IMG/VR virus record: IMGVR_UViG_3300043410_000542
Coordinates: 1 to 64,000 of that record
Reading direction: 5' to 3' (one strand)
Source: a virus
DNA: 64,000 nt
How positions within the stretch are numbered: position 1 is the first letter of the stretch; each line of letters opens with the position of its first letter. The notes beneath the pieces are model-generated. The model did no database searches, was not told where the DNA came from, and saw nothing but the letters and a program-made list of their open reading frames with translations. Made by a program: the position numbers and the translations under genes. Shown here piece by piece: positions 1 through 9,524 of this stretch.

Positions 1-246
1 CTATGTAAAGAAATTGTTTTGCCTATGTTTGCTACAAAACCTAAATATCAATTCAGCCGTGCCAAATGGTACGAGGGTAAGTTTGACTGGCGCAAGTATG
101 AAGAGGTACATAACTGGTGTGAGCAACACTTTGGTAAGCATCCCAAGAGACCAGATGCTTGGTCACGCTGGAATCACATGTATGAAGATATGATTCTTTT
201 CCGTGATGAAAAAGATTACATGATGTTTGTATTGAGGTGGTCGTGA
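1..246 (+). CDS. LRW-array small protein 1 (frame open from position 1, probably 5'-partial)
   Basis: Ends FRDEKDYMMFVLRWS; internal WCEQHFG..W motif; no stop in frame back to base 1. Confidence 0.8.
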   Translation, partial: LCKEIVLPMFATKPKYQFSRAKWYEGKFDWRKYEEVHNWCEQHFGKHPKRPDAWSRWNHMYEDMILFRDEKDYMMFVLRWS

Positions 247-455
247 GATTAGAAAATGATTTAGACGGACTGCTCGTAAAAGAGCGTGTTAAATTTCATT
301 ATAAAGAAATACCATGGACCCAATTGCTTGAAATATCAGCATGGTGCGATAAACAGTTTGGTAAAAATAATTGGGGTTTTGACACGGGACATGTTGTATT
401 CAACGGTCGTTGTCCTGAAGGTAGCTCTACAATGTTTGTGTTGAGATGGTCATGA
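243..455 (+). CDS. LRW-array small protein 2
   Basis: GTG start overlaps upstream stop (GTGA) after GAGGTG; WCDKQFG..W; ends MFVLRWS. Confidence 0.8.
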   Translation: MRLENDLDGLLVKERVKFHYKEIPWTQLLEISAWCDKQFGKNNWGFDTGHVVFNGRCPEGSSTMFVLRWS

Positions 456-688
456 AAGTTGAAATTATATTTGATCCAGGGAAATATCCCTATCGTGCTG
501 AAATCAAATGGCATTCCTCTACTGATTGGAACTCAACTGAGGCATACGATTGGTGCGAGAGAAACTTTGGTCACAGAAATGCCAAGTATGAAAATCCTCG
601 CTGGTATGCTAACACTAGATACTTCACCGGTAACTTCAGGTTTCGTGACAAAAAAGATGCTGAATGGTTCTTATTGAGGTGGGGATGA
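452..688 (+). CDS. LRW-array small protein 3
   Basis: ATGA overlap; WCERNFG..W; ends FRDKKDAEWFLLRWG. Confidence 0.85.
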   Translation: MKVEIIFDPGKYPYRAEIKWHSSTDWNSTEAYDWCERNFGHRNAKYENPRWYANTRYFTGNFRFRDKKDAEWFLLRWG

Positions 689-942
689 GAGTGGAGTTTA
701 ATCAAGGCGTACCCGCAGGATGTAAGCAATGGCTTTGGGATAACGTCGGACCCGGGAATATAACATTGACTAGACCTGGTATCATTGATGCGGAGGATAG
801 TCCCGAGTATGCTTGGTTCTTTGAGCGTATTAAGAAACCAACAACCCCGGAATCGTTTTATGACGACCCGTTTTATTTTGTCCCTACTATCACAGTTAAA
901 GACCCGAAGATGGCGATGGTATTTGCGTTGAGGTGGCAATGA
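685..942 (+). CDS. LRW-array small protein 4
   Basis: ATGA overlap after GAGGTG; WLWDNVG; ends DPKMAMVFALRWQ. Confidence 0.85.
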   Translation: MRVEFNQGVPAGCKQWLWDNVGPGNITLTRPGIIDAEDSPEYAWFFERIKKPTTPESFYDDPFYFVPTITVKDPKMAMVFALRWQ

Positions 943-1136
943 AACAATATGGAATAGCCATTGAGAGTTGGCCGGCTACACGTAAAGTAGATGTTAAGTG
1001 GTGGCTGCTTGAAAACTTTGGACCCGAAGACTCTCCGACACAAAAGGGACGTTGGGGTTGTGCGTATGACTATGGGCTGGATAATATCTACATGGATGAA
1101 GATGTTTTTATAATGTATCAATTGAGGTGGGGATGA
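939..1136 (+). CDS. LRW-array small protein 5
   Basis: ATGA overlap; WLLENFG..RW; ends DEDVFIMYQLRWG. Confidence 0.85.
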   Translation: MKQYGIAIESWPATRKVDVKWWLLENFGPEDSPTQKGRWGCAYDYGLDNIYMDEDVFIMYQLRWG

Positions 1137-1381
1137 TGGATTTAGAACTTGTAAAAAAGATTGTAGTCAGACAAGGGCAGAATGAATTTCTGAAAAACCC
1201 CATCGTATGTCCACCCGAAGCAAAAGTTGTCACTGGTATAATGAAGGAGGATGCTTACTTACATTTTTTAGAAACCAAATGCGGCGTGGAGATTCTGTTG
1301 TCAGAATATCATCACGAGATAGTTGGGTACAATGTTCTTGATGAAAAGAAGTTTTCTTGGTTTGTGTTGAAGTGGGCATGA
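1133..1381 (+). CDS. LRW-array small protein 6
   Basis: ATGA overlap; ends DEKKFSWFVLKWA. Confidence 0.85.
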   Translation: MMDLELVKKIVVRQGQNEFLKNPIVCPPEAKVVTGIMKEDAYLHFLETKCGVEILLSEYHHEIVGYNVLDEKKFSWFVLKWA

Positions 1382-1545
1382 AGTTCTTTCGTAAAGTTAA
1401 GCTAGCCGAAGCATACGCTAGGGTAGAGTGGTGTAAAACAACTTTGGGCAAAGAAGTTAAAGGTGGTAACTGGTGGCGATACAAAGGACATCTTTACTTT
1501 ACAGATGAAAAGTGTTATACTTGGTATATATTGAGGTGGTTATGA
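1378..1545 (+). CDS. LRW-array small protein 7
   Basis: ATGA overlap; WCKTTLG..WW; ends FTDEKCYTWYILRWL. Confidence 0.85.
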   Translation: MKFFRKVKLAEAYARVEWCKTTLGKEVKGGNWWRYKGHLYFTDEKCYTWYILRWL

Positions 1546-1802
1546 GAGAACCTTATTTTGTTAGAGAAAGATACATCGTTCCTGTAGGCAGACTGTGGGC
1601 TGACCCTTGGCCTGACTACTTTAATAATTTTTGGGCACACTGTGGTTATGTTGCTGATGTGAATAACTGGAAACAAATCACAGTCGCTAATTATGAACTT
1701 AAACTATTAGGTGGTAAACTGATTCAAACTAGCACACAGGGTTGGTACTTGCGTTGGGATGATGAAAAGAGTCACACATTTTTTGTATTGAAGTGGTCAT
1801 GA
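1542..1802 (+). CDS. LRW-array small protein 8
   Basis: ATGA overlap; ends WDDEKSHTFFVLKWS. Confidence 0.85.
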   Translation: MREPYFVRERYIVPVGRLWADPWPDYFNNFWAHCGYVADVNNWKQITVANYELKLLGGKLIQTSTQGWYLRWDDEKSHTFFVLKWS

Positions 1803-2011
1803 AAATTATCAAATGGTATGAGCCAACTTTCAAGCCAATCATACAATTGATTGCGAAAGAAGCAAAAGAGTCAAAGTGGGGCAACAGTGAAGGTATGCGT
1901 GTGATTGCCAAACACAAGTTCGGACTTAAGATTAGTAAGGCTTCAGGTGATTGGCATAGAATCGTTGTATTAGATGAACAGAAGTATGCTTGGATGATGC
2001 TGAAACTATGA
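1799..2011 (+). CDS. LRW-array small protein 9 (variant end LKL)
   Basis: ATGA overlap; ends DEQKYAWMMLKL. Confidence 0.8.
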   Translation: MKIIKWYEPTFKPIIQLIAKEAKESKWGNSEGMRVIAKHKFGLKISKASGDWHRIVVLDEQKYAWMMLKL

Positions 2012-2289
2012 TACAATGGAATCGTAGCATAGGCTATAACATTGATAGACATAAAGCGAAAAAGATGGATTACCATATTATTACAGACGGAGCAGACTGC
2101 TACCCCTGGCACGAATACTTTGCTATTCTTCCTAGAAAGACAGTCACAGGTAAACGTATCTTCTGGGAGAAAGCATACAAACGCAAAGTGTGGGTAGTGT
2201 GGGGCACAGGGTTTCATATGGAACCTGAAACCCAGTACGCAACTATATTTGATTTATTGACTTATGAAAATACTAAACCTAAGACTTAA
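2008..2289 (+). CDS. hypothetical protein inside the array (no LRW motif)
   Basis: ATGA overlap; ORF with WHEYFAILPRKTVTGKRIFW. Confidence 0.7.
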   Translation: MIQWNRSIGYNIDRHKAKKMDYHIITDGADCYPWHEYFAILPRKTVTGKRIFWEKAYKRKVWVVWGTGFHMEPETQYATIFDLLTYENTKPKT

Positions 2290-2722
2290 GGCACGCTGGC
2301 GCAAGTATCTTGCTGACCGCAAGTTAGCAAAGAGTGGCTATAGTTCATGGCGTGTGTATAGACATTGCCGTGATGTTGATGTTATGCGTCATGCTGACAA
2401 AGTAAGTGATTTCTATTGGAAGTACAAGCATGTATTCGTGTGTGGTGGAAGTCCATCATCACACTATGCTTACAGCGTAGCACGTGATTACGGTCCTGCT
2501 GGGTTAGTGTTCGGCTACGAACTTATGAGAGACTGGTGTGAAACTAAATGCAGATTCAAGTATCGTGTTGACATTCACAGAGTATTGAAACAAACAGGTC
2601 TGGGTATTAACGGTGAAGAATATCCTGAATGGTACTTCAATGATATCGGTGGCACAGACCTAGTGTTCTTTGCTTTTATGAACGAACAAGATTATATTCA
2701 TTTTATGTTGAGGTGGGGATGA
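2264..2722 (+). CDS. LRW-array protein with N-terminal extension
   Basis: DWCETKC; ends FMNEQDYIHFMLRWG. Confidence 0.85.
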   Translation: MKILNLRLKARWRKYLADRKLAKSGYSSWRVYRHCRDVDVMRHADKVSDFYWKYKHVFVCGGSPSSHYAYSVARDYGPAGLVFGYELMRDWCETKCRFKYRVDIHRVLKQTGLGINGEEYPEWYFNDIGGTDLVFFAFMNEQDYIHFMLRWG

Positions 2723-2967
2723 GTAGTTTTAAGCACAAATCAGAACGCTACTATGGTAGCAAACATCAAGTACACACTGTATCTTGGAAGGGTCAAGGTG
2801 AAGTTGACGGAGATGCGATACGTGAGTGGTGCATTAGTAAGTTTGGACCAGCTGGATATCGTGAAGACCTAGGTGAGACTATATGGTTGGATGACATTAC
2901 CGGAAACGGTGAAATCTTCTTGTGTAAAGATGAATACTTGACTATGTTCTTATTGAGGTGGGATTGA
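2719..2967 (+). CDS. LRW-array small protein
   Basis: ATGA overlap; EWCISKFG..W; ends KDEYLTMFLLRWD. Confidence 0.85.
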   Translation: MSSFKHKSERYYGSKHQVHTVSWKGQGEVDGDAIREWCISKFGPAGYREDLGETIWLDDITGNGEIFLCKDEYLTMFLLRWD

Positions 2968-3245
2968 TGGAATACTTTTATGGTGGTGGCGGCAATAGTC
3001 GCCCGGTCTTCATATACAGATTCAAGGTTGATCCTTGTACTACTAAAATGTACCAGTGGGCCCAAGCATACCCAGAGAAAGGACCCTTCAGTCGTTTCCA
3101 TGTTGAATGGCGTTCAGTGTACAGCAAAATGGATTACCCGCTAGACTATGATATTATACAGTTTGAACATAGTGAAGCCGCTAAAGTATTCAGAATCGCA
3201 TTCGCCGGTGAGTATGAAGAAACCACCATGAAAGAATACAGATGA
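2967..3245 (+). CDS. array protein, degenerate LRW-like helix (FEHSEAAKVFRIAF)
   Basis: TGATG overlap after GAGGTG. Confidence 0.75.
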   Translation: MEYFYGGGGNSRPVFIYRFKVDPCTTKMYQWAQAYPEKGPFSRFHVEWRSVYSKMDYPLDYDIIQFEHSEAAKVFRIAFAGEYEETTMKEYR

Positions 3246-3424
3246 TTGAATGGAAAGTAGTTTATCGTGATATGGCAGCTAGTCAATGGGATGAAAAAGT
3301 TAAATGGTGTGCCAACAACCTCTATAACGGTGGACACTATGAACCGAACTGGCAGACGCAGTATCCATTCATTATCTTTACAGATGAAAAAGAGTTTGCT
3401 TGGTTTAAGCTGAGATGGGAATGA
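3242..3424 (+). CDS. LRW-array small protein
   Basis: ATGA overlap; KWCANNL..W; ends FTDEKEFAWFKLRWE. Confidence 0.85.
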   Translation: MIEWKVVYRDMAASQWDEKVKWCANNLYNGGHYEPNWQTQYPFIIFTDEKEFAWFKLRWE

Positions 3425-3627
3425 TTGTTGTTGGTATATACGTCACTGAGGATTTTCACATAGATAATGCGATTGATTGGGTGATAGCAAACTGTGAAAG
3501 TTTTGACAAGTACCAATTGATGGAACTTGATTTTGAAGAACGACAAGAACGAGATTGCTGGTTTAGACTAGATATGTATTTCAAAGAAGAAAAAGATGCG
3601 ATGATGTATAAGTTGAGGTGGGAATAA
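3421..3627 (+). CDS. LRW-array small protein
   Basis: ATGA overlap; ends FKEEKDAMMYKLRWE. Confidence 0.85.
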   Translation: MIVVGIYVTEDFHIDNAIDWVIANCESFDKYQLMELDFEERQERDCWFRLDMYFKEEKDAMMYKLRWE

Positions 3628-3974
3628 TGTTTGAAGAAGTTAATAAATGGTTTAAAATATTTGGTAAAGACATAGGAGAAAAGATGGTTCACAAAGCAGT
3701 GAGCCCGGGCGACCAATTCAGCGTATTTCAAATCAAAAATGGAATGGTTGGATTCAAGCCTTTCCTAATTATTGAGAATCAAAACGAAACTGTGTTATAC
3801 TCTAATCAACATTGCGTAGCAGTTGATGTGCGCCCGGAAGTCGAACAGTGGGTACTTGAACAGCCCATTCACATGTGGAAGTATGCAGAAGAAATTGATG
3901 ATTGTCATCACGGTATGACAAGATTGCTAGTAGATAGAGAATTATTAACTTGGATGACATTGAAATGGATTTGA
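3627..3974 (+). CDS. LRW-array protein
   Basis: TAATG overlap; ends DRELLTWMTLKWI. Confidence 0.8.
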   Translation: MFEEVNKWFKIFGKDIGEKMVHKAVSPGDQFSVFQIKNGMVGFKPFLIIENQNETVLYSNQHCVAVDVRPEVEQWVLEQPIHMWKYAEEIDDCHHGMTRLLVDRELLTWMTLKWI

Positions 3975-4402
3975 ATAGCCTGTCAGATAACGAATTGATT
4001 GATTATATCATTAAGCATGATACAGATCCTGTTAGGGTTCGTCTTGCCACTCACATGCAACGAGTAGCCGGTTCAATCATTGATGGATTAGTTGATGTTG
4101 GTATGGATGATACATGGTGTACGTTTAGAAGTGAGGTTAATGGTGCTAACTATCACCCTGGACAATATATCAACCACCTTGAGAATGAGGTTGAATATCT
4201 CAATGACAAACTAAGTGATGCGCTCAAAGAAATCAAAGACCTTCAAGCACGGACTATCATGGACTTTATCGGTGAACTCAAACAAGAGATTAAGACCGTA
4301 GAGTGGTGTCGTGATGAGGCTTACAGAGACAGAGACAAAGCACAAGAGAATGAAAAGATTATGAAAAGTAAACTTGACATGTGGGCAGTGTTGAACCGAT
4401 GA
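3965..4402 (+). CDS. hypothetical coiled-coil protein inside the array
   Basis: ATG lies within the upstream KW codons; heptad-rich C-terminal half; no LRW motif. Confidence 0.7.
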   Translation: MDLNSLSDNELIDYIIKHDTDPVRVRLATHMQRVAGSIIDGLVDVGMDDTWCTFRSEVNGANYHPGQYINHLENEVEYLNDKLSDALKEIKDLQARTIMDFIGELKQEIKTVEWCRDEAYRDRDKAQENEKIMKSKLDMWAVLNR

Positions 4403-4623
4403 ACACTAAAGTGGCAAGTTTTTTAGAACGTTGGTATGAAGAAGCAGAACTTAATGACAAGTACTGGCCCTATCAGTTCACAGTCAAAGACTGGCAGCGC
4501 ATTCGTGAAACTGAACGATTCTGTTATACGAACTTTAAGAGCAAGAACTGGCGCAATCGTGGAAGATACTTTGGATTCAAACGCAAAGAAGACTATGAGT
4601 GGTTTGTATTGAGGTGGGGATGA
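4399..4623 (+). CDS. LRW-array small protein
   Basis: ATGA overlap; FCYTNF..NW; ends FKRKEDYEWFVLRWG. Confidence 0.85.
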   Translation: MNTKVASFLERWYEEAELNDKYWPYQFTVKDWQRIRETERFCYTNFKSKNWRNRGRYFGFKRKEDYEWFVLRWG

Positions 4624-4877
4624 AAACTAAAGAAGAAGAAATGATGGACATCATGGCTGAAGAAATTCGCAAAGAGATTGATGAGGGTATTATTTCAAAC
4701 ATACTAGTTGAGTCTGGTTGGACACCTGTAAAATTTTATTTTAAGAACGGTCCTCAAGCGACTGATATACAGATTTGGTTAGCCGGGACATGCACCGGAG
4801 ATTATCGTAGATTGGGTAGTGACTACGTGTTTGAAAACAAACAAGACGCTGAATGGTTTATGCTACGATGGCTTTAA
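4620..4877 (+). CDS. LRW-array small protein
   Basis: ATGA overlap; ends FENKQDAEWFMLRWL. Confidence 0.85.
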   Translation: MKTKEEEMMDIMAEEIRKEIDEGIISNILVESGWTPVKFYFKNGPQATDIQIWLAGTCTGDYRRLGSDYVFENKQDAEWFMLRWL

Positions 4878-5134
4878 CGTTCAAAATAGATGAGGGTAGA
4901 GTATACGGAGCACGATACTACACGGCCGAACCTCACTGTGATGATTGGAATGAAGCAGTCCCGTGGTATTTACTACAAGACTGGGTAGAAGAAATGTATG
5001 GAGAGAGTAAAGGTTCTATCTGGTTTGACAGAAATAAAGCCCCCGAACCCGGTGAAAGATGGTATGTGAACAATGCGAAATTTTGGTTTCGCAACAAAGA
5101 AGATTTGGAATGGTTTTTACTAAGATGGCAGTAA
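4868..5134 (+). CDS. LRW-array small protein
   Basis: ATG within upstream RW codons; WVEEMYG..RWY; ends FRNKEDLEWFLLRWQ. Confidence 0.85.
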   Translation: MALTFKIDEGRVYGARYYTAEPHCDDWNEAVPWYLLQDWVEEMYGESKGSIWFDRNKAPEPGERWYVNNAKFWFRNKEDLEWFLLRWQ

Positions 5135-5373
5135 CGATTAAACTCAAACAACTGTACGGTGAACAAGAAAACTGGCTTGCTAAGAATGTAGGACCAAGAA
5201 TGCACTACCTTCACAATTCAATAGGTGGTCAGGGTTGGATCGCAAAGAAAGGTTCAGAAGAAGTAGAAATGGAAGGTCATGGTGGGACATACAGGGGTCA
5301 TATAACAGTTTGGAATCTAACATTTGCAGAAGATAAGTATGCTACTTGGTTTAGGATAATGTTTCCAGAATGA
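5125..5373 (+). CDS. array protein, degenerate end (FAEDKYATWFRIMFPE)
   Basis: WLAKNVG motif like member 4; ATG within upstream RW codons. Confidence 0.8.
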   Translation: MAVTIKLKQLYGEQENWLAKNVGPRMHYLHNSIGGQGWIAKKGSEEVEMEGHGGTYRGHITVWNLTFAEDKYATWFRIMFPE

Positions 5374-5588
5374 TAGAAGTCAAAATCATAGATATGTTGC
5401 CAAACGAGATTATGGACATAGTCAAAGAACTAAGAAAAAGTGGGCATGTTCAGGGCACAGACTTTGACTTTGAATATCACAAGCCCGAATACGATGACTT
5501 TAGTTACGAACCAGTGTATAATAGATATACAATCTTCAAGTTTTACAAAGAAGAATTAGCGACTTGGTTCGCATTGAGGTATCAGTAA
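5370..5588 (+). CDS. LRW-array small protein (variant LRY)
   Basis: ATGA overlap; ends FYKEELATWFALRYQ. Confidence 0.85.
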   Translation: MIEVKIIDMLPNEIMDIVKELRKSGHVQGTDFDFEYHKPEYDDFSYEPVYNRYTIFKFYKEELATWFALRYQ

Positions 5589-5875
5589 TGGCAGTATCAA
5601 GAGTAGGTGGGTTAAGCACAGGTACATTTACGACATACACTAGTATGTCTAAACCAGTGGACGAATCAGTTTACGAAGTGAAACAGAACGGACACATCCT
5701 ACATAGAATTGACCTGAGATATAATAAAGTTGATCCTGCTGATTATATCAAATGGTGTCGTAGAAACTTGGGCAATCGACAAGAGACATGGGACTTCTGG
5801 TTAGCAGGTGGTATCTTGTACGTTGAAGTCTGGGGTGACAAGGCAAAAGTCACCTATGAAATGTGGAAGCATTAA
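5588..5875 (+). CDS. last array member, degenerate
   Basis: TAATG overlap after GAGGT; KWCRRNLG..WDF motif. Confidence 0.75.
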   Translation: MAVSRVGGLSTGTFTTYTSMSKPVDESVYEVKQNGHILHRIDLRYNKVDPADYIKWCRRNLGNRQETWDFWLAGGILYVEVWGDKAKVTYEMWKH

Positions 5876-5876
5876 C

Positions 5877-6170
5877 ATGAGTGAACTAGTAGTAATAAAC
5901 GGAATAATACAACACAAACACGCATACATGGTGTCAGGCGATTCGATTGTATTTCACACTGCACCTCCCAACCGTTCTGATGTTAGTATTCTCATGGATG
6001 ACACTAGATATGAATACATAGGAGACGGTACTACGTTCGTATTTCAAGGAACACCTTCAGGTAGAATGAAATTTAGAAAGTTCATGGAAGAAGTGTACGA
6101 GAAGAAAGATGACCCGACAGTCAAAGACGCATTAGAGAAATTGAAAATAGTAATGGAGTTAGTAAAGTAA
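5877..6170 (+). CDS. hypothetical protein with tail-fibre-like beta-repeat motifs
   Basis: VINGIIQ..YMVSGDSIVFHTAP and GDGTTFVF; ATG just after the upstream stop. Confidence 0.65.
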   Translation: MSELVVINGIIQHKHAYMVSGDSIVFHTAPPNRSDVSILMDDTRYEYIGDGTTFVFQGTPSGRMKFRKFMEEVYEKKDDPTVKDALEKLKIVMELVK

Positions 6171-6727
6171 TGGCAGATATAATGATTGACATTGAGAGTT
6201 TGGATACAGGTCCAGACTGCGTGATACTAACAATCGGTGCAGTATTGTTCGACCCTAAAGGTCAAGGAATCATCGACAAGTTAGAACTTAGACCTACGAT
6301 TGAAGAACAAACAGATGTGTTCAATCGCACAATCAATCCAGATACATTGCGCTGGTGGGGTGAACAATCAGAAGCCGCACAAGAAGAAGCACTAGGTGAC
6401 AGAGACAGAGTATCATTTAAAGAATGCATGGATACATTGTACAAATGGTGCTGGAAGTATAACAACGGCAAAGTATGGTCGAATGGTGCATCATTTGACG
6501 TTGTGGTTATGGAGTCAGCATGGCGCAATCACAATCAGATGCCACCGTGGAACTTCTGGAACATTAGAGATACTAGAACCATCTACGATATCTGCGGCGT
6601 AAGTCTCAAAGACGGTGGACATTCCACTAGCCACAAGGCTGTAGAAGATGCTGAACGTCAAGCCATTGTCGTACAGAAAGCATACATGAAATTAATCAAA
6701 GCAGAATTGGTAGCAGCACCACGATGA
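6170..6727 (+). CDS. DEDDh 3'-5' exonuclease (DnaQ superfamily)
   Basis: ExoI MIDIESL, ExoII WSNGASFDV, ExoIII HKAVEDA. Confidence 0.9.
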   Translation: MADIMIDIESLDTGPDCVILTIGAVLFDPKGQGIIDKLELRPTIEEQTDVFNRTINPDTLRWWGEQSEAAQEEALGDRDRVSFKECMDTLYKWCWKYNNGKVWSNGASFDVVVMESAWRNHNQMPPWNFWNIRDTRTIYDICGVSLKDGGHSTSHKAVEDAERQAIVVQKAYMKLIKAELVAAPR

Positions 6728-7296
6728 AATTCAATTCAGATATTGACATTGACTTCGGTAACAGGGATGATATCTTAAAACATATCAATCATATCCCTGC
6801 TGCCATGCGTAATAACACACTGAGAAAACATGCGACTGGTATCTATGTAACTGAGATTCCTAGGGATGCATTACACGACATGGCTAACATTGACTATGTG
6901 GTAGCAGAGAAGCGTGGCTATGTCAAACTAGACTTGTTAAATGTTCACGTTTATTCTCAGGTCAAAGATGAAACACATCTAGCTGAATTGATGAATCGTG
7001 AGCCTGATTGGGAAAAGCTAAAAGAAAAGAAGTTTGTGGAACAATTGATTCATTTAGCAAATCACTATCAGAGTATTAGAAAGATGCCTGAACCCATTGA
7101 TAGTATTCCTAGACTAGCAATGTTTCTTGCTGTGATTCGACCGGCAAAGAAGCATTTGATCGGCTTGCCCTGGAAAGAAGTCGCTAAAACTGTGTGGGAT
7201 AAAGATGATACAGGGTATACTTTTAAGAAAAGTCACTCTGTTAGTTATGCACATTTAGTTGCTGTGCATATGAACTTGCTTAGTTCATCCTCTTGA
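6724..7296 (+). CDS. DNA polymerase III alpha (DnaE)-like catalytic fragment, miniaturised
   Basis: SDIDIDF, KHATGIYV, GYVKLDLL, IRPAK and GYTFKKSHSVSYA occur in DnaE order. Confidence 0.85.
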   Translation: MKFNSDIDIDFGNRDDILKHINHIPAAMRNNTLRKHATGIYVTEIPRDALHDMANIDYVVAEKRGYVKLDLLNVHVYSQVKDETHLAELMNREPDWEKLKEKKFVEQLIHLANHYQSIRKMPEPIDSIPRLAMFLAVIRPAKKHLIGLPWKEVAKTVWDKDDTGYTFKKSHSVSYAHLVAVHMNLLSSSS

Positions 7297-7660
7297 CAAG
7301 CGTAATCGACTTTCGTTTACTCTTACGCTTTGCTAACTCTAGCATACTACACGCAGGACCGTGAACTACAGTTAGACTTTTGTTATTGAACGTTCTTAGA
7401 TAGGGTCTAAAGATAGCCCATTCTTCTTTTAAGAACATATTGATGGGCACTAGTCTATTGGATTCCCACCACCACGTGTCCCCTAATTCTAAGAATCTAT
7501 CACGCAATACCTGGTCTAGGATCGCACCATAGTCATATATAGTGGTAACAATGTCGTCCCTGTTTTGAACGATCCCTACATAGTCTTGCCCAGCATATGA
7601 GCAGACAGTTATGAAGGGATGATTTTTGCTAAGTCGTGCGAAGAATTCGTTGTGAATCAT
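7280..7660 (-). CDS. hypothetical protein
   Basis: ORF preceded by minus-strand late promoter GATAAATA at 7681-7688; start MIHNEFF. Confidence 0.7.
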   Translation of the reverse strand: MIHNEFFARLSKNHPFITVCSYAGQDYVGIVQNRDDIVTTIYDYGAILDQVLRDRFLELGDTWWWESNRLVPINMFLKEEWAIFRPYLRTFNNKSLTVVHGPACSMLELAKRKSKRKSITLVKRMN

Positions 7661-7680
7661 TATTTTAAAACGTCTAGGAA

Positions 7681-7724
7681 TATTTATCTTCGGGTAAAAC
7701 CCAATATAATATTTGTCATAAATA
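7681..7724. promoter_or_regulatory. Divergent pair of T4-type late promoters
   Basis: GATAAATA on - strand (7681-7688) and CATAAATA on + strand (7717-7724). Confidence 0.7.
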
Positions 7725-7741
7725 GAGTAAAGGACCTTCAA

Positions 7742-8494
7742 ATGCAATCTACATCAGTAACCTACTACATTCCAAGACAAACGGTTGTGTTGTATGACGG
7801 CACCTCATCTAGGAGATATCAAACCGTGTACGCTAAAAATCTAAAAATCCATAAAGGGATTGACAACCGCCTGCAGTTCCAGTTCATCAATCAGGACCAA
7901 AAAGCAGTAGACATAACAGGTAAGACTCTATCTTGTAGATTGATTAGCTATGATGGCTCTAAGATTCTATTACAGAAGGCACTTACCCCGGTGTTCCCGT
8001 TGACTGGTATCTGTCAACTAGATGTTACTATGAACGAGACATTGGAAATGGAAGCTACTATGTGCTATTACTCAATCACTATCCCTAATGGGACATTTGA
8101 GTTTCCTGTATTCGTAGATGATAACTCGGGTGGCAGAGGTGTAGTTGATGTAGTCAATAGTGTGTTACCGAAATACACAAAGTCAACCGAGTTAAATATT
8201 TTACCACACACTGATCCTAGTGATGTTCAACCTGTAACATACTTCACAGGTCAATACATAACCCAAGACTCTGACTTTTTAACATTCCAAACTGTATTAA
8301 ATAACTACGTTGGTACAATCAAAGTTCAGGGTTCTGCTACAGGTAATAACACTGAATGGTATGATTTAACTGATGAGCAAGTATACGACGGCTATACAAG
8401 CACCGACTACTTTAACGTTAGCGGGTATCATGCATACATGCAAGTAGTGTTCACAAGCACTGCGGGCACCGTAGATAAAGTTCTGGTCAGATAA
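7742..8494 (+). CDS. putative virion structural protein (beta-rich)
   Basis: Late promoter and AAGGA RBS upstream; T/S/V/Y-rich. Confidence 0.65.
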   Translation: MQSTSVTYYIPRQTVVLYDGTSSRRYQTVYAKNLKIHKGIDNRLQFQFINQDQKAVDITGKTLSCRLISYDGSKILLQKALTPVFPLTGICQLDVTMNETLEMEATMCYYSITIPNGTFEFPVFVDDNSGGRGVVDVVNSVLPKYTKSTELNILPHTDPSDVQPVTYFTGQYITQDSDFLTFQTVLNNYVGTIKVQGSATGNNTEWYDLTDEQVYDGYTSTDYFNVSGYHAYMQVVFTSTAGTVDKVLVR

Positions 8495-8507
8495 TTATCC
8501 ATCTCTG

Positions 8508-8536
8508 TTGTAAAGCGATACATATTGTGTTACACT
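8508..8536 (+). promoter_or_regulatory. sigma70-type promoter, probably leaderless primase mRNA
   Basis: TTGTAA-17nt-TACACT with extended TG; ATG 7 nt downstream; no SD. Confidence 0.6.
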
Positions 8537-8543
8537 AACACAG

Positions 8544-9524
8544 ATGTTTGATATCCTATCTTTAATTCCGGGCAAGAAAAAACAAACGAATAGTGGTTGG
8601 ACAAGTTTCAACGGCATTTGTTGTTCCCATAGAGGTCATCGCCCTGATACTAGACAGCGGGGTGGTGTCAGATTTGAAGGGCCTAATAACTGGGTAATGC
8701 ATTGCTTCAATTGTGGCTTTACATGTAGCTTTGTATTAGGCAAAACCATCAACGGAAAGACAAGAGACTTTCTCGTATGGTGCGGAGTTGATATTCAGCA
8801 AGTACAACGATGGAGTTTAGAAAGTTTACAACACAAAGACTTACTAGACTTCACACATGAACGAAAGAAGCGTACTAACATTAAGTTCAAAACAAAAGAA
8901 CTTCCTGACAGTGAACCGCTTGACATTAATAACTACAAACATTTACCCGCTATTACCTACCTAGAGAATAGAGGCATACATTATGATAGTTATCCATTCG
9001 TTGTAACTCCCGATGATAAAGGTCGTAACAGCAACAGAGTTATCATACCATATTTCTACAACAACAGAGTTGTAGGTAATACCAGTAGATTCTTAGATAA
9101 CAGAATCCCGAAATATTTGAATGACCAACAACCAGGCTACGTTTTCAATATCGATGCACAGAAACCAGAATGGCAAATCTGTATCGTCACTGAAGGCATA
9201 TTTGATGCATTGAGCATTAATGGTGTGGCTGTCATGCACGATGACATTAGCCCAGAGCAAGTAGAGTTGTTAGCGACATTAAACAAACGAATTATCGTAG
9301 TTCCCGATTTCGATAAGACAGGCATGAACATGATTGACCGTGCTTTAGAATTGGGTTACTCGGTAAGTTTACCAGAATGGCATCCAGGAGTAAAGGATGT
9401 CAATGATGCAGTCGTGCGATATGGTAAGCTACCTACTGTACTTTCTATACTAGAAAATGCTACAATGAGTAAAATAAAACTAGAATTACAAAGGAAGAAA
9501 ATTGGCAAAAGAAACGGATTCTAA
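8544..9524 (+). CDS. DNA primase (T4 gp61/DnaG type)
   Basis: N-terminal Zn finger (CC..H..HCFNC); TOPRIM TEGIFDA, PDFD, KDVND. Confidence 0.9.
   Translation: MFDILSLIPGKKKQTNSGWTSFNGICCSHRGHRPDTRQRGGVRFEGPNNWVMHCFNCGFTCSFVLGKTINGKTRDFLVWCGVDIQQVQRWSLESLQHKDLLDFTHERKKRTNIKFKTKELPDSEPLDINNYKHLPAITYLENRGIHYDSYPFVVTPDDKGRNSNRVIIPYFYNNRVVGNTSRFLDNRIPKYLNDQQPGYVFNIDAQKPEWQICIVTEGIFDALSINGVAVMHDDISPEQVELLATLNKRIIVVPDFDKTGMNMIDRALELGYSVSLPEWHPGVKDVNDAVVRYGKLPTVLSILENATMSKIKLELQRKKIGKRNGF

Follow-up and report, generated by a model that had tools for sequence, protein, structure and literature searches.

Hyperplastic regions of T4-type phages carry cassettes known as promoter-early stem-loops, or PeSLs (Arbiol et al. 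2010, PMC2839356; Comeau et al. 2014, PMC4122927). In the account of the former paper, a promoter and a stem-loop are repeated between ORFans, serve as points of homologous exchange and yield mini-circles, an arrangement which the authors themselves liken to integrons (PMC2839356). Here we analyze a stretch of 64,000 nucleotides (further, the window), positions 1–64,000 of the IMG/VR virus record IMGVR_UViG_3300043410_000542, a contig of 86,257 bases rated 25% complete. The array proper (1–5875) consists of about 23 small genes arranged head-to-tail, of which about 20 are paralogues of one family ending in Leu-Arg-Trp (L-R-W). The last five codons of the family genes are dual-coded, as they also form the Shine–Dalgarno (SD) site and the start of the following gene; we call this word of about 15 nt the joint. 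In related phages whole genes of the array are absent, added or reordered, with the change of homology lying inside the joint. PeSL cassettes are the closest described system: the behavior is shared, while the features that define PeSLs, that is, promoter, stem-loop and intergenic position, are lacking here.

The likeness to PeSLs, as these are presented in the cited accounts, covers the setting, which is a plastic region with small genes of mostly unknown function in a T4-type myovirus, a short expression signal that is repeated at gene borders and is the exchange point, the lack of an integrase, with general phage recombination invoked, and the position of the ends of insertions, deletions and replacements between relatives, which fall in the repeat. 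On the other hand, the PeSLs of these accounts are intergenic, combine a sigma-70-like promoter with a terminator stem-loop and leave the cassettes transcriptionally insulated, whereas the array has no intergenic DNA and no excess of promoter-like or terminator-like sites: over positions 1–9000 we count 31 promoter-like sites, compared to 27.0 ± 4.9 in shuffles, and five terminator-like sites, compared to 5.2 expected. With both counts at chance, internal promoters and terminators were rejected. No stem-loop is seen either. The nine canonical joints are no more stably folded than shuffles (z from –0.51 to +1.42, eight of the nine at or above zero), so RNA structure at the joint was rejected as well, and the sole Rfam match is a snoRNA at the chance level (E = 0.6). 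The array repeat is instead coding and translational, with C-terminus, SD, stop and start in about 15 nt, and the cassettes are paralogues of one family. Moreover, the mini-circles of PeSLs have been demonstrated, as reported in those accounts, while the array is known here from contig sequences alone.

Other described systems agree with the array in part. In the lambdoid linker-sequence model (Botstein, Susskind, Campbell, as summarized in PMC2839356), short border sequences guide homologous exchange. As in that summary, a conserved border sequence places the incoming module in a working context; still, that model concerns functional gene groups whose linkers are non-coding or gene ends, whereas the array exchanges single small paralogous genes, each with its own last five codons as the linker. 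Overlapping stop/start pairs (ATGA, TGATG) with coupling by termination-reinitiation are also described (Huber et al. 2019, PMC6728339). The –4 and –1 nt overlaps and the SD inside the upstream coding sequence are the same in the array and, judging by that description, are a standard prokaryotic arrangement; in contrast to ordinary coupled pairs, one dual-coded word is used about 20 times per chain, lies on a conserved protein motif and marks exchange points. Tandem multigene families evolve by unequal crossing-over. As in such families, recombination between repeated units yields copy-number change and homogenization, but only the last ~9–35 nt of the array units are alike at the DNA level, and exchange is confined to unit borders, because the gene bodies are only 16–33% identical in protein, and moves very different genes. 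An integron comprises an intI integrase, attI, attC-flanked promoterless cassettes and the Pc promoter. The array resembles it in having ordered, single-gene cassettes, apparently promoterless, which may be driven from upstream, and in whole-cassette gain, loss and reordering, and differs in the absence of an integrase (four records) and of an attC-like folded site, in the variable crossover span, in the mutual relatedness of cassettes, and in the host, which is a lytic-type phage genome. For the array, "integron-like" is an analogy only. In the literature searched, a coding stop/SD/start joint acting as a cassette exchange point is not described. What is new is the combination: a protein C-terminus recoded as the ribosome site and start of the next gene, repeated along paralogues, and being the seam of exchange.

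Nine matches of TTGAGGTGG are found in the window, all on the + strand, at 232, 674, 928, 1122, 1531, 2708, 2953, 3613 and 4609 (span 232–4617), while shuffles have 0.30 on average and three at most, and 0/100 of them reach nine. The whole 86,257-base contig adds no further copy (nine on +, none on –). The 15-mer TTGAGGTGGGGATGA has four exact matches (674, 1122, 2708, 4609), compared to 0.00 expected, and some pairs of joints have longer stretches in common, namely TTCTTATTGAGGTGGG (668, 2947) and TTTGTATTGAGGTGG (226, 4603). Each copy of TTGAGGTGG is the end of an open reading frame (ORF) read as L-R-W-x-stop, and the next start comes from ATGA, GTGA, TGATG or TAATG.

The joint exists in two variants. 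The usual one is TTG-AGG-TGG-NNA-TGA, where Leu-Arg-Trp is kept, AGG spells the SD core GAGGTG, and NNA-TGA gives the next ATG. In the alternative variant, YTN-(A/C)GA-TGG-NNN-TAA, the SD is dropped and the ATG is taken from within the Arg-Trp codons in the same frame, so that the inner ATG and the ATGA of the two variants share one reading frame. The inner starts 3965, 4868 and 5125 sit within K/R-W codons (AAATGG, CGATGG and AGATGG, respectively) and match the N-termini that the orthologues have in two related loci, L002 and L055. An earlier reading made from the letters alone (further, the sequence-only reading) had reported the motif counts, the shared stretches of about 20 nt, the dual reading as protein end, SD and stop/start overlap, and the three starts inside R/K-W codons, and all of these are reproduced here.

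The recognizable ribosome sites elsewhere in the genome are of the TAAGGA, AAGGA or AGGAG type with spacers of 6–8 nt. In the array, the SD of the downstream gene sits inside the upstream coding sequence at a working distance (GAGGTG 3 nt before ATG), and GAGGTG with its 3-nt spacer gives the aligned spacing of the TAAGGA-type sites that have 6–7-nt spacers, in the rRNA pairing register that we assume for aligning these sites. In relatives, the genes upstream of the array run in the same direction as it does, and we infer that the chain is one polycistronic, translationally coupled message.

Positions 1–6170 contain 24 co-directional genes with zero intergenic DNA. Most neighbors share 4 nt or 1 nt; the overlap is 10 nt at the inner starts and 26 nt for g10/g11. 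Twenty genes align as one family, while g10, g13, g17 and g24 are unrelated to it; the three family genes closest to the exonuclease (g21–g23) have degenerate ends. The genes are as follows.

1..246, +: g1, family; truncated at its 5' end, where the contig starts; ends FVLRWS; joint TTG-AGG-TGG-TCG-TGA (its GTGA starts g2)
243..455, +: g2, family, GTG start; ends FVLRWS; joint TTG-AGA-TGG-TCA-TGA; ATG 446 and ATG 452 in one frame
452..688, +: g3, family; ends WFLLRWG; joint TTGAGGTGGGGATGA
685..942, +: g4, family; ends FALRWQ; joint TTGAGGTGGCAATGA
939..1136, +: g5, family; ends YQLRWG; joint TTGAGGTGGGGATGA
1133..1381, +: g6, family; ends FVLKWA; joint TTGAAGTGGGCATGA
1378..1545, +: g7, family; ends YILRWL; joint TTGAGGTGGTTATGA
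1542..1802, +: g8, family; ends FVLKWS; joint TTGAAGTGGTCATGA
1799..2011, +: g9, family; degenerate end WMMLKL; ATGA overlap with g10
2008..2289, +: g10, non-family small gene; 26-nt overlap with g11; cluster 13, widespread in relatives, where its right-hand neighbors vary
2264..2722, +: g11, family, 152 aa; ends FMLRWG; joint TTGAGGTGGGGATGA
2719..2967, +: g12, family; ends FLLRWD; joint TTGAGGTGGGATTGATG (TGATG overlap)
2967..3245, +: g13, non-family small gene; ATGA overlap with g14
3242..3424, +: g14, family; ends FKLRWE; joint CTG-AGA-TGG-GAA-TGA
3421..3627, +: g15, family; ends YKLRWE; joint TTGAGGTGGGAATAATG (TAATG overlap)
3627..3974, +: g16, family; ends MTLKWI; no SD core; next start ATG 3965 inside AAA-TGG
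3965..4402, +: g17, non-family, 145 aa; ATGA overlap with g18; adjoins g18 in the window, L002 and L055
4399..4623, +: g18, family; ends WFVLRWG; joint TTGAGGTGGGGATGA
4620..4877, +: g19, family; ends WFMLRWL; joint CTA-CGA-TGG-CTT-TAA; next start ATG 4868 inside CGA-TGG
4868..5134, +: g20, family; ends WFLLRWQ; joint CTA-AGA-TGG-CAG-TAA; next start ATG 5125 inside AGA-TGG
5125..5373, +: g21, family; degenerate end WFRIMFPE; ATGA overlap; syntenic with g22–g24 in L002 and L055
5370..5588, +: g22, family; ends WFALRYQ (TTG-AGG-TAT); TAATG overlap
5588..5875, +: g23, last family gene; degenerate end YEMWKH
5877..6170, +: g24, small gene outside the family; separates the array from the exonuclease gene, with which it has a TAATG overlap
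6170..6727, +: exonuclease (phrog_255), conserved right-hand flank; anchor for fetching 160 related loci

Orthologues of many window genes are present in L002 and L055 with 63–97% amino acid identity, in other orders:

window: 1 2 3 ... 24
L002: x x 17 18 6 13 10. 11 1' 8 3 x 5 x 16 19 20 12' 21 22 23 24
L055: x 8 5' 16 17 18 4 6 1' x 13 11' 19 20 12' 10 21 22 23 24

Seven new adjacencies were laid out base by base, and all seven switch homology within the 15-nt joint: up to the joint the relative aligns with one gene of the window, and from ATGA on with a different one. All inspected new junctions are seamless and preserve both the reading frame and an overlap of 4 nt or 1 nt. Among closer relatives, 21 pairs of loci differing by an indel were tried, giving 14 two-piece solutions; left out of the breakpoint counts were four pairs without usable high-scoring segment pairs (HSPs) and three with a distant right-hand HSP (overlaps of –113, –203, –221). 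If both joints are of the L-R-W type (n = 9), the pieces overlap by 35, 33, 24, 22, 22, 15, 12, 10 and 8 nt, and the extra DNA amounts to one to three whole genes (209–585 nt). Ranked by the longest exact identity among the joint pairs of its array, the flanking pair is 1/45, 11/45, 1/28, 2/15, 1/6 and 11/21; these ranks favor guidance by homology in a suggestive, not decisive way.

Alternative joins were also collected from Logan contigs at a likeness of at least 88%, both in the window's own sample (X1, X2) and in two other runs (X3, X4); neither uncovered parts nor the small-share runs X3–X8 carry habitat information. The joins are as follows.

243 to 453: g2 precisely absent; X3
902 to 1122, with 25 letters of variant tail: g5 absent, L055-type g4–g6 join; X1, X2, X4
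1802 to 2017: g9 absent; X3, X4
1375 to 2967: g6 followed by g13; X3
3968 to 4629: g16 followed by g19; X3
2720 to 1547: g11 followed by g8; X4
1807 to 569: g8 followed by g3; X1, X2
2716 to 1: g11 followed by g1; X1, X2

These joins show co-existing array variants of related phages. The backward joins (g8 to g3, g11 to g1) were considered as evidence of circles, and this was rejected, as they are indistinguishable from variant gene orders of relatives, of the L002 type. Changes of gene content and order at the motif had been predicted, and this is what is seen in relatives: the array is not fixed, as L002 and L055 hold orthologues in different orders, the breakpoints coincide with the motif in all seven inspected junctions, and indels of single or few cassettes are flanked by junction repeats of 8–35 nt. 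As for the proposed shuffling by junction microhomology, gains, losses and reorderings at the joint are borne out, and that junction homology causes the exchanges is what we infer.

The tyrosine integrase domain PF00589 was found in none of the four records searched (G000, which is this record, 25% complete; G003 and G004, both 100%; G005, 86%), with 14/14 control genomes positive, and no folded site is seen at the joints, in agreement with the sequence-only reading, which had proposed integron-like behavior with no integrase or attC site visible. A RecA/UvsX-like gene is present in three of the four records (the three relatives), 7.5–8 kb from the array, and a UvsW-like helicase flanks the array in relatives. 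As there is no integrase, a RecA/UvsX-like gene is near and a UvsW-like helicase is flanking, T4-style short-patch recombination is the simplest mechanism. Exchanges would come from the general recombination machinery of the phage (RecA/UvsX-like, UvsW-like), which would act on about 9–35 nt of identity common to paralogous joints, both within a genome and between co-infecting genomes. Every recombinant would be an intact, seamless, still-translatable chain, and a dedicated recombinase or recombination site would not be needed. We consider it probable that the array is such a dual-coded joint chain, with coupled translation and gene shuffling at the joint by general short-homology recombination.

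Another explanation, which we regard as unlikely though deserving consideration, accepts the translational reading and ascribes the position of breakpoints not to repeat-guided recombination, but to a plastic region combined with selection for intact genes: illegitimate or very short microhomology joins would arise everywhere, and only the intergene ones would survive. The seamless new junctions argue against it, since random joining seldom keeps both overlap and frame when there is no intergenic DNA; so do the flanking joints, which are first or second in exact identity in four of the six evaluable events, and the presence of the RecA/UvsX-like gene and UvsW-like helicase in relatives. Still, a number of observations fit the plastic-region explanation and weigh against the short-homology one. 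Motif-less non-family genes (clusters 13 and 27) also have varying neighbors, and at non-family joints the breakpoint overlaps are –6 to 1 nt (11 nt in one mixed case). The tie of motif ends to neighbor variability is weak, 0.52 for L-R-W ends versus 0.32 for others, a modest excess with p = 0.037, uncorrected for relatedness. Direct repeats are inherent to the array, and any precise cassette indel would be flanked by the joint anyway. Further points weigh against the short-homology explanation alone. The other two of the six ranked events are mid-rank, none of the events is dated as recent, given the 70–90% DNA identity of the compared relatives, and the Logan joins come from related phages and cannot show circles or single-lineage events. 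In addition, 0/8 public runs containing the stretch are recorded as RNA, and expression, operon and coupling stay putative; the codon counts of paralogues, considered below, are non-independent observations.

Returning to the short-homology reading, its translational part is tied to the nucleotides of the joint by codon usage. Arginine codons of 72 non-array ORFs are CGT (337), AGA (334), CGC (88), CGA (68), AGG (23) and CGG (16), so that AGG makes up 23/866 (2.7%) outside the array; in the array gene bodies it accounts for 5/105, and at the motif Arg, for 10/14 (binomial p = 1.6e-13, overstated, as paralogues are treated as independent). The motif Leu is TTG in 14/18 compared to 33% genome-wide (p = 1.2e-4, under the same treatment). 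This agrees with the earlier impression that the motif Arg is mostly AGG, while the highly expressed genes of the window appear to favor CGT/AGA. A wider set, the 160 related loci fetched through the neighboring exonuclease plus the window, contains 564 family ORFs, all on the strand of the exonuclease (+), giving 347 unique 120-nt contexts, of which 274 include the motif. Its Arg codon is AGG in 137/241; TTG pairs with AGG, and TTA with AGA (114/26/10/36, p = 3.5e-13); an overlapping start follows AGG in 121/137 and AGA in 45/78 (p = 5e-7). In relatives, 188/274 unique motif ends have a 4-nt (ATGA/GTGA/TTGA) or 1-nt (TGATG/TAATG) overlap. Exactly one codon follows Trp in 345/362 motif ends, typically NNA before TGA.

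Orthologues with different downstream partners are especially informative, as their Arg and stop codons switch jointly, in step with the gene that follows. The g20-like gene (cluster 8) ends with ...AGGTGGCAATGA or ...AGATGGCAATGA if an unrelated cassette comes next, and with ...AGATGGCA(A/G)TAA if followed by the g21-like gene, which begins with ATG-GCA, read from the overlapped Trp-Gln codons of the g20-like gene. The g19-like gene (cluster 16) shows the same switch by downstream partner, between AGG...NNATGA and (A/C)GATGG...TAA. This comparison of g19-like and g20-like genes indicates that the two joint variants are interchangeable. Moreover, inherited synonymous states should have decayed long ago, because the paralogues share under a third of residues. 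Selection on the joint nucleotides, for SD and start, is thus strongly supported by the sequence data, as had been proposed, by the rare AGG, the co-variation and the codon switches in orthologues.

These data bear on an alternative in which the DNA word has no function at the nucleotide level and merely mirrors, by descent, the conserved C-terminal Leu-Arg-Trp of paralogues. The protein motif is itself under selection, as L-R-W is kept with differing codons (CTA-CGA-TGG, CTA-AGA-TGG, CTG-AGA-TGG) and the L-R-W end is retained in hundreds of clusters of the family; yet paralogues with only ~16–33% identity have the rare AGG at most motif sites both here and in relatives, TTG co-varies with AGG and AGG with the overlapping start, the variable last residue is nearly always NNA before TGA, and Arg and stop codons of orthologues change with the downstream partner. 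The codon data already contradict this alternative, and we give it very little weight. A dedicated site-specific, integron-like system, with an unrecognized recombinase acting on TTGAGGTGG, is highly improbable: the motif is indeed strand-specific and present at every exchange point, and HNH or endonuclease VII-like genes occasionally occur at the array edge in some relatives, but no tyrosine integrase is found in 4/4 records, two of them complete, the joints have no hairpin or attC-like structure and no Rfam match, they vary freely (AGA, CGA, AAG forms) and still mark exchange points, and the crossover overlaps of 8–35 nt look like homology rather than a fixed cleavage site. Equally hard to credit are assembly chimeras made at the repeated joint as the source of gene-order differences, since, although all relatives are metagenome contigs and the own-sample Logan contigs across the array are only short, the longest exact joint identities (at most 25 nt) are below the 31-letter words of Logan and the final word sizes of usual assemblers, the same orders recur across samples (L055 = L058; L044 = L045 = L051 = L104; L066 = L068 = L070 = L109), and Logan contigs independently repeat the L055-type g4–g6 and L002-type g8–g3 joins.

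The family has the consensus W-C-x3-F-G ... W ... F-x-D-E-K-D-x-x-(W/F)-F-x-L-R-W-x, forming a domain of about 65 residues at the very C-terminus. Pairwise protein identity among the 20 window paralogues (alignment A1) is 16–33%, and in alignment A2 (90 members) conservation reaches at least 90% in columns W, C, G, W, F, D, L and W. A profile of the 20 paralogues matches 966 cluster representatives at E ≤ 1e-3 in a search space of 1.84 billion proteins (50% identity clusters); among the profile matches listed, most align at their very C-terminus. The family is virus-only, and its ESM Atlas neighbors are unnamed viral clusters only. Pfam and PHROG scans of ten array proteins yielded nothing usable, a Pfam scan of the 90 A2 members gave only scattered chance matches, and a PDB profile search with the family, one chance match (E = 0.57). 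There are no tblastn matches of a consensus-like member (P0010) in 50,697 phage records, positions 1–6200 of the window have no near match in the phage collection, and the literature searched contains no paper on a protein family with the L-R-W end. In complete relatives the family is concentrated at the array locus (5/7 matches in G004, 2/2 in G003, 6/6 in G005).

Members of the g1 subfamily (KYKFSRAKWY) bear varied N-terminal leaders copying short and strongly conserved segments of essential phage proteins, at positions 1–27 of the window (g1), L055:5000–5338, L002:5784–6170, L049:3204–3719, L056:2101–2520 and L096:2272–2703. The leaders of L055 and L002 (about 40–55 residues) match the first ~50 positions of Pfam Gp23 above the cut-off, with 49.3 and 47.5 bits, and are 59% and 47% identical, respectively, to the N-terminus of the capsid protein of complete relatives. 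Capture of the 5' end of the capsid gene at the DNA level was rejected, as the likeness is of protein only (47–59%), with no blastn-short match there. Other leaders of the subfamily contain a Walker-A-like AGRQ(S/T)GKS stretch or an NLCxEI(x)LP stretch, which we take to resemble terminase and ribonucleotide reductase motifs; the truncated g1 of the window opens with a leader of the latter type, LCKEIVLP. The g1-type leaders may serve as decoys or targeting tags, or they may be scars of old fusions. In the interior of g19 (4632–4733) there is a weak match to Pfam Gp23 (positions 171–199; 15.8 bits, below the cut-off), and a similar weak match recurs in the record of L055; the match in g19 is probably due to chance.

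The tail sheath of the contig is ~47% identical to the sheaths of Atu_ph07-like and PA5oct-like jumbo phages, and relatives reach 303–367 kb and have a Gp23-type capsid gene. Positions 1–5875 are best explained as a hyperplastic early-gene region of a T4-type (Gp23-capsid) freshwater jumbo myovirus. In relatives, the left boundary of the array begins with the UvsW-like helicase, after which come three conserved PHROGs of unknown function and a first family gene; the right boundary consists of g21–g24 homologues followed by the exonuclease. Between the same flanks, the array length varies from ~1.6 kb (L004) to 2.0 (L024), 2.6 (L045), 6.1 (L003), 7.7 (L002) and 7.9 kb (L055). Beside the exonuclease, g26 (window 6724–7296) is conserved in relatives with 66–75% identity, and in several of them extra DNA separates the two genes. 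An ATP-grasp/GARS-like (purD-like) gene of 391–393 aa is located mid-array at L002:4163–5341 and L003:5482–6657 (Pfam GARS_A, E = 2.8e-28), an auxiliary metabolic gene among the cassettes that is absent from the array of the window. At the right edge, just before the exonuclease, an HNH/intron-like endonuclease (L055:9345–9989) and an endonuclease VII-like gene (L004:9610–10005) are found, neither of them in the window. The contig start falls inside g1. The assembly probably broke within the variable array, rather than at the genome end, because in contigs of the same sample the tail of g11 (2716) continues into position 1.

A good part of the unknown viral gene pool resides in phage hyperplastic regions, whose turnover is only partly understood. 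PeSLs, with intergenic promoter-terminator repeats, are one well-described mechanism of this turnover, while in the array described here the exchange point is coding and translational, and any crossover inside the joint would give a working chain. The array makes it possible to test the limits that dual coding sets on protein ends, whether ~10–30 nt of identity suffice for modular exchange, and what role hundreds of divergent small proteins of one fold have in early infection. As the order of the array differs between co-occurring strains, caution is also called for when aquatic jumbo phages are annotated and assembled. As a tentative extension, the joint may be an evolved, integrase-free cassette interface, and the reshuffled library of early proteins, a diversity-generating arsenal, e.g., against host defenses; a hint in this direction comes from the g1-subfamily leaders, some of which copy the most conserved stretch of the capsid protein, while others are Walker-A-like or of the NLCxEI type. 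If this is true, selection would keep one ~15-nt word in four roles, as protein end, ribosome site, stop and start, and a jumbo phage population would reshuffle its small early proteins with every recombinant chain still translatable.

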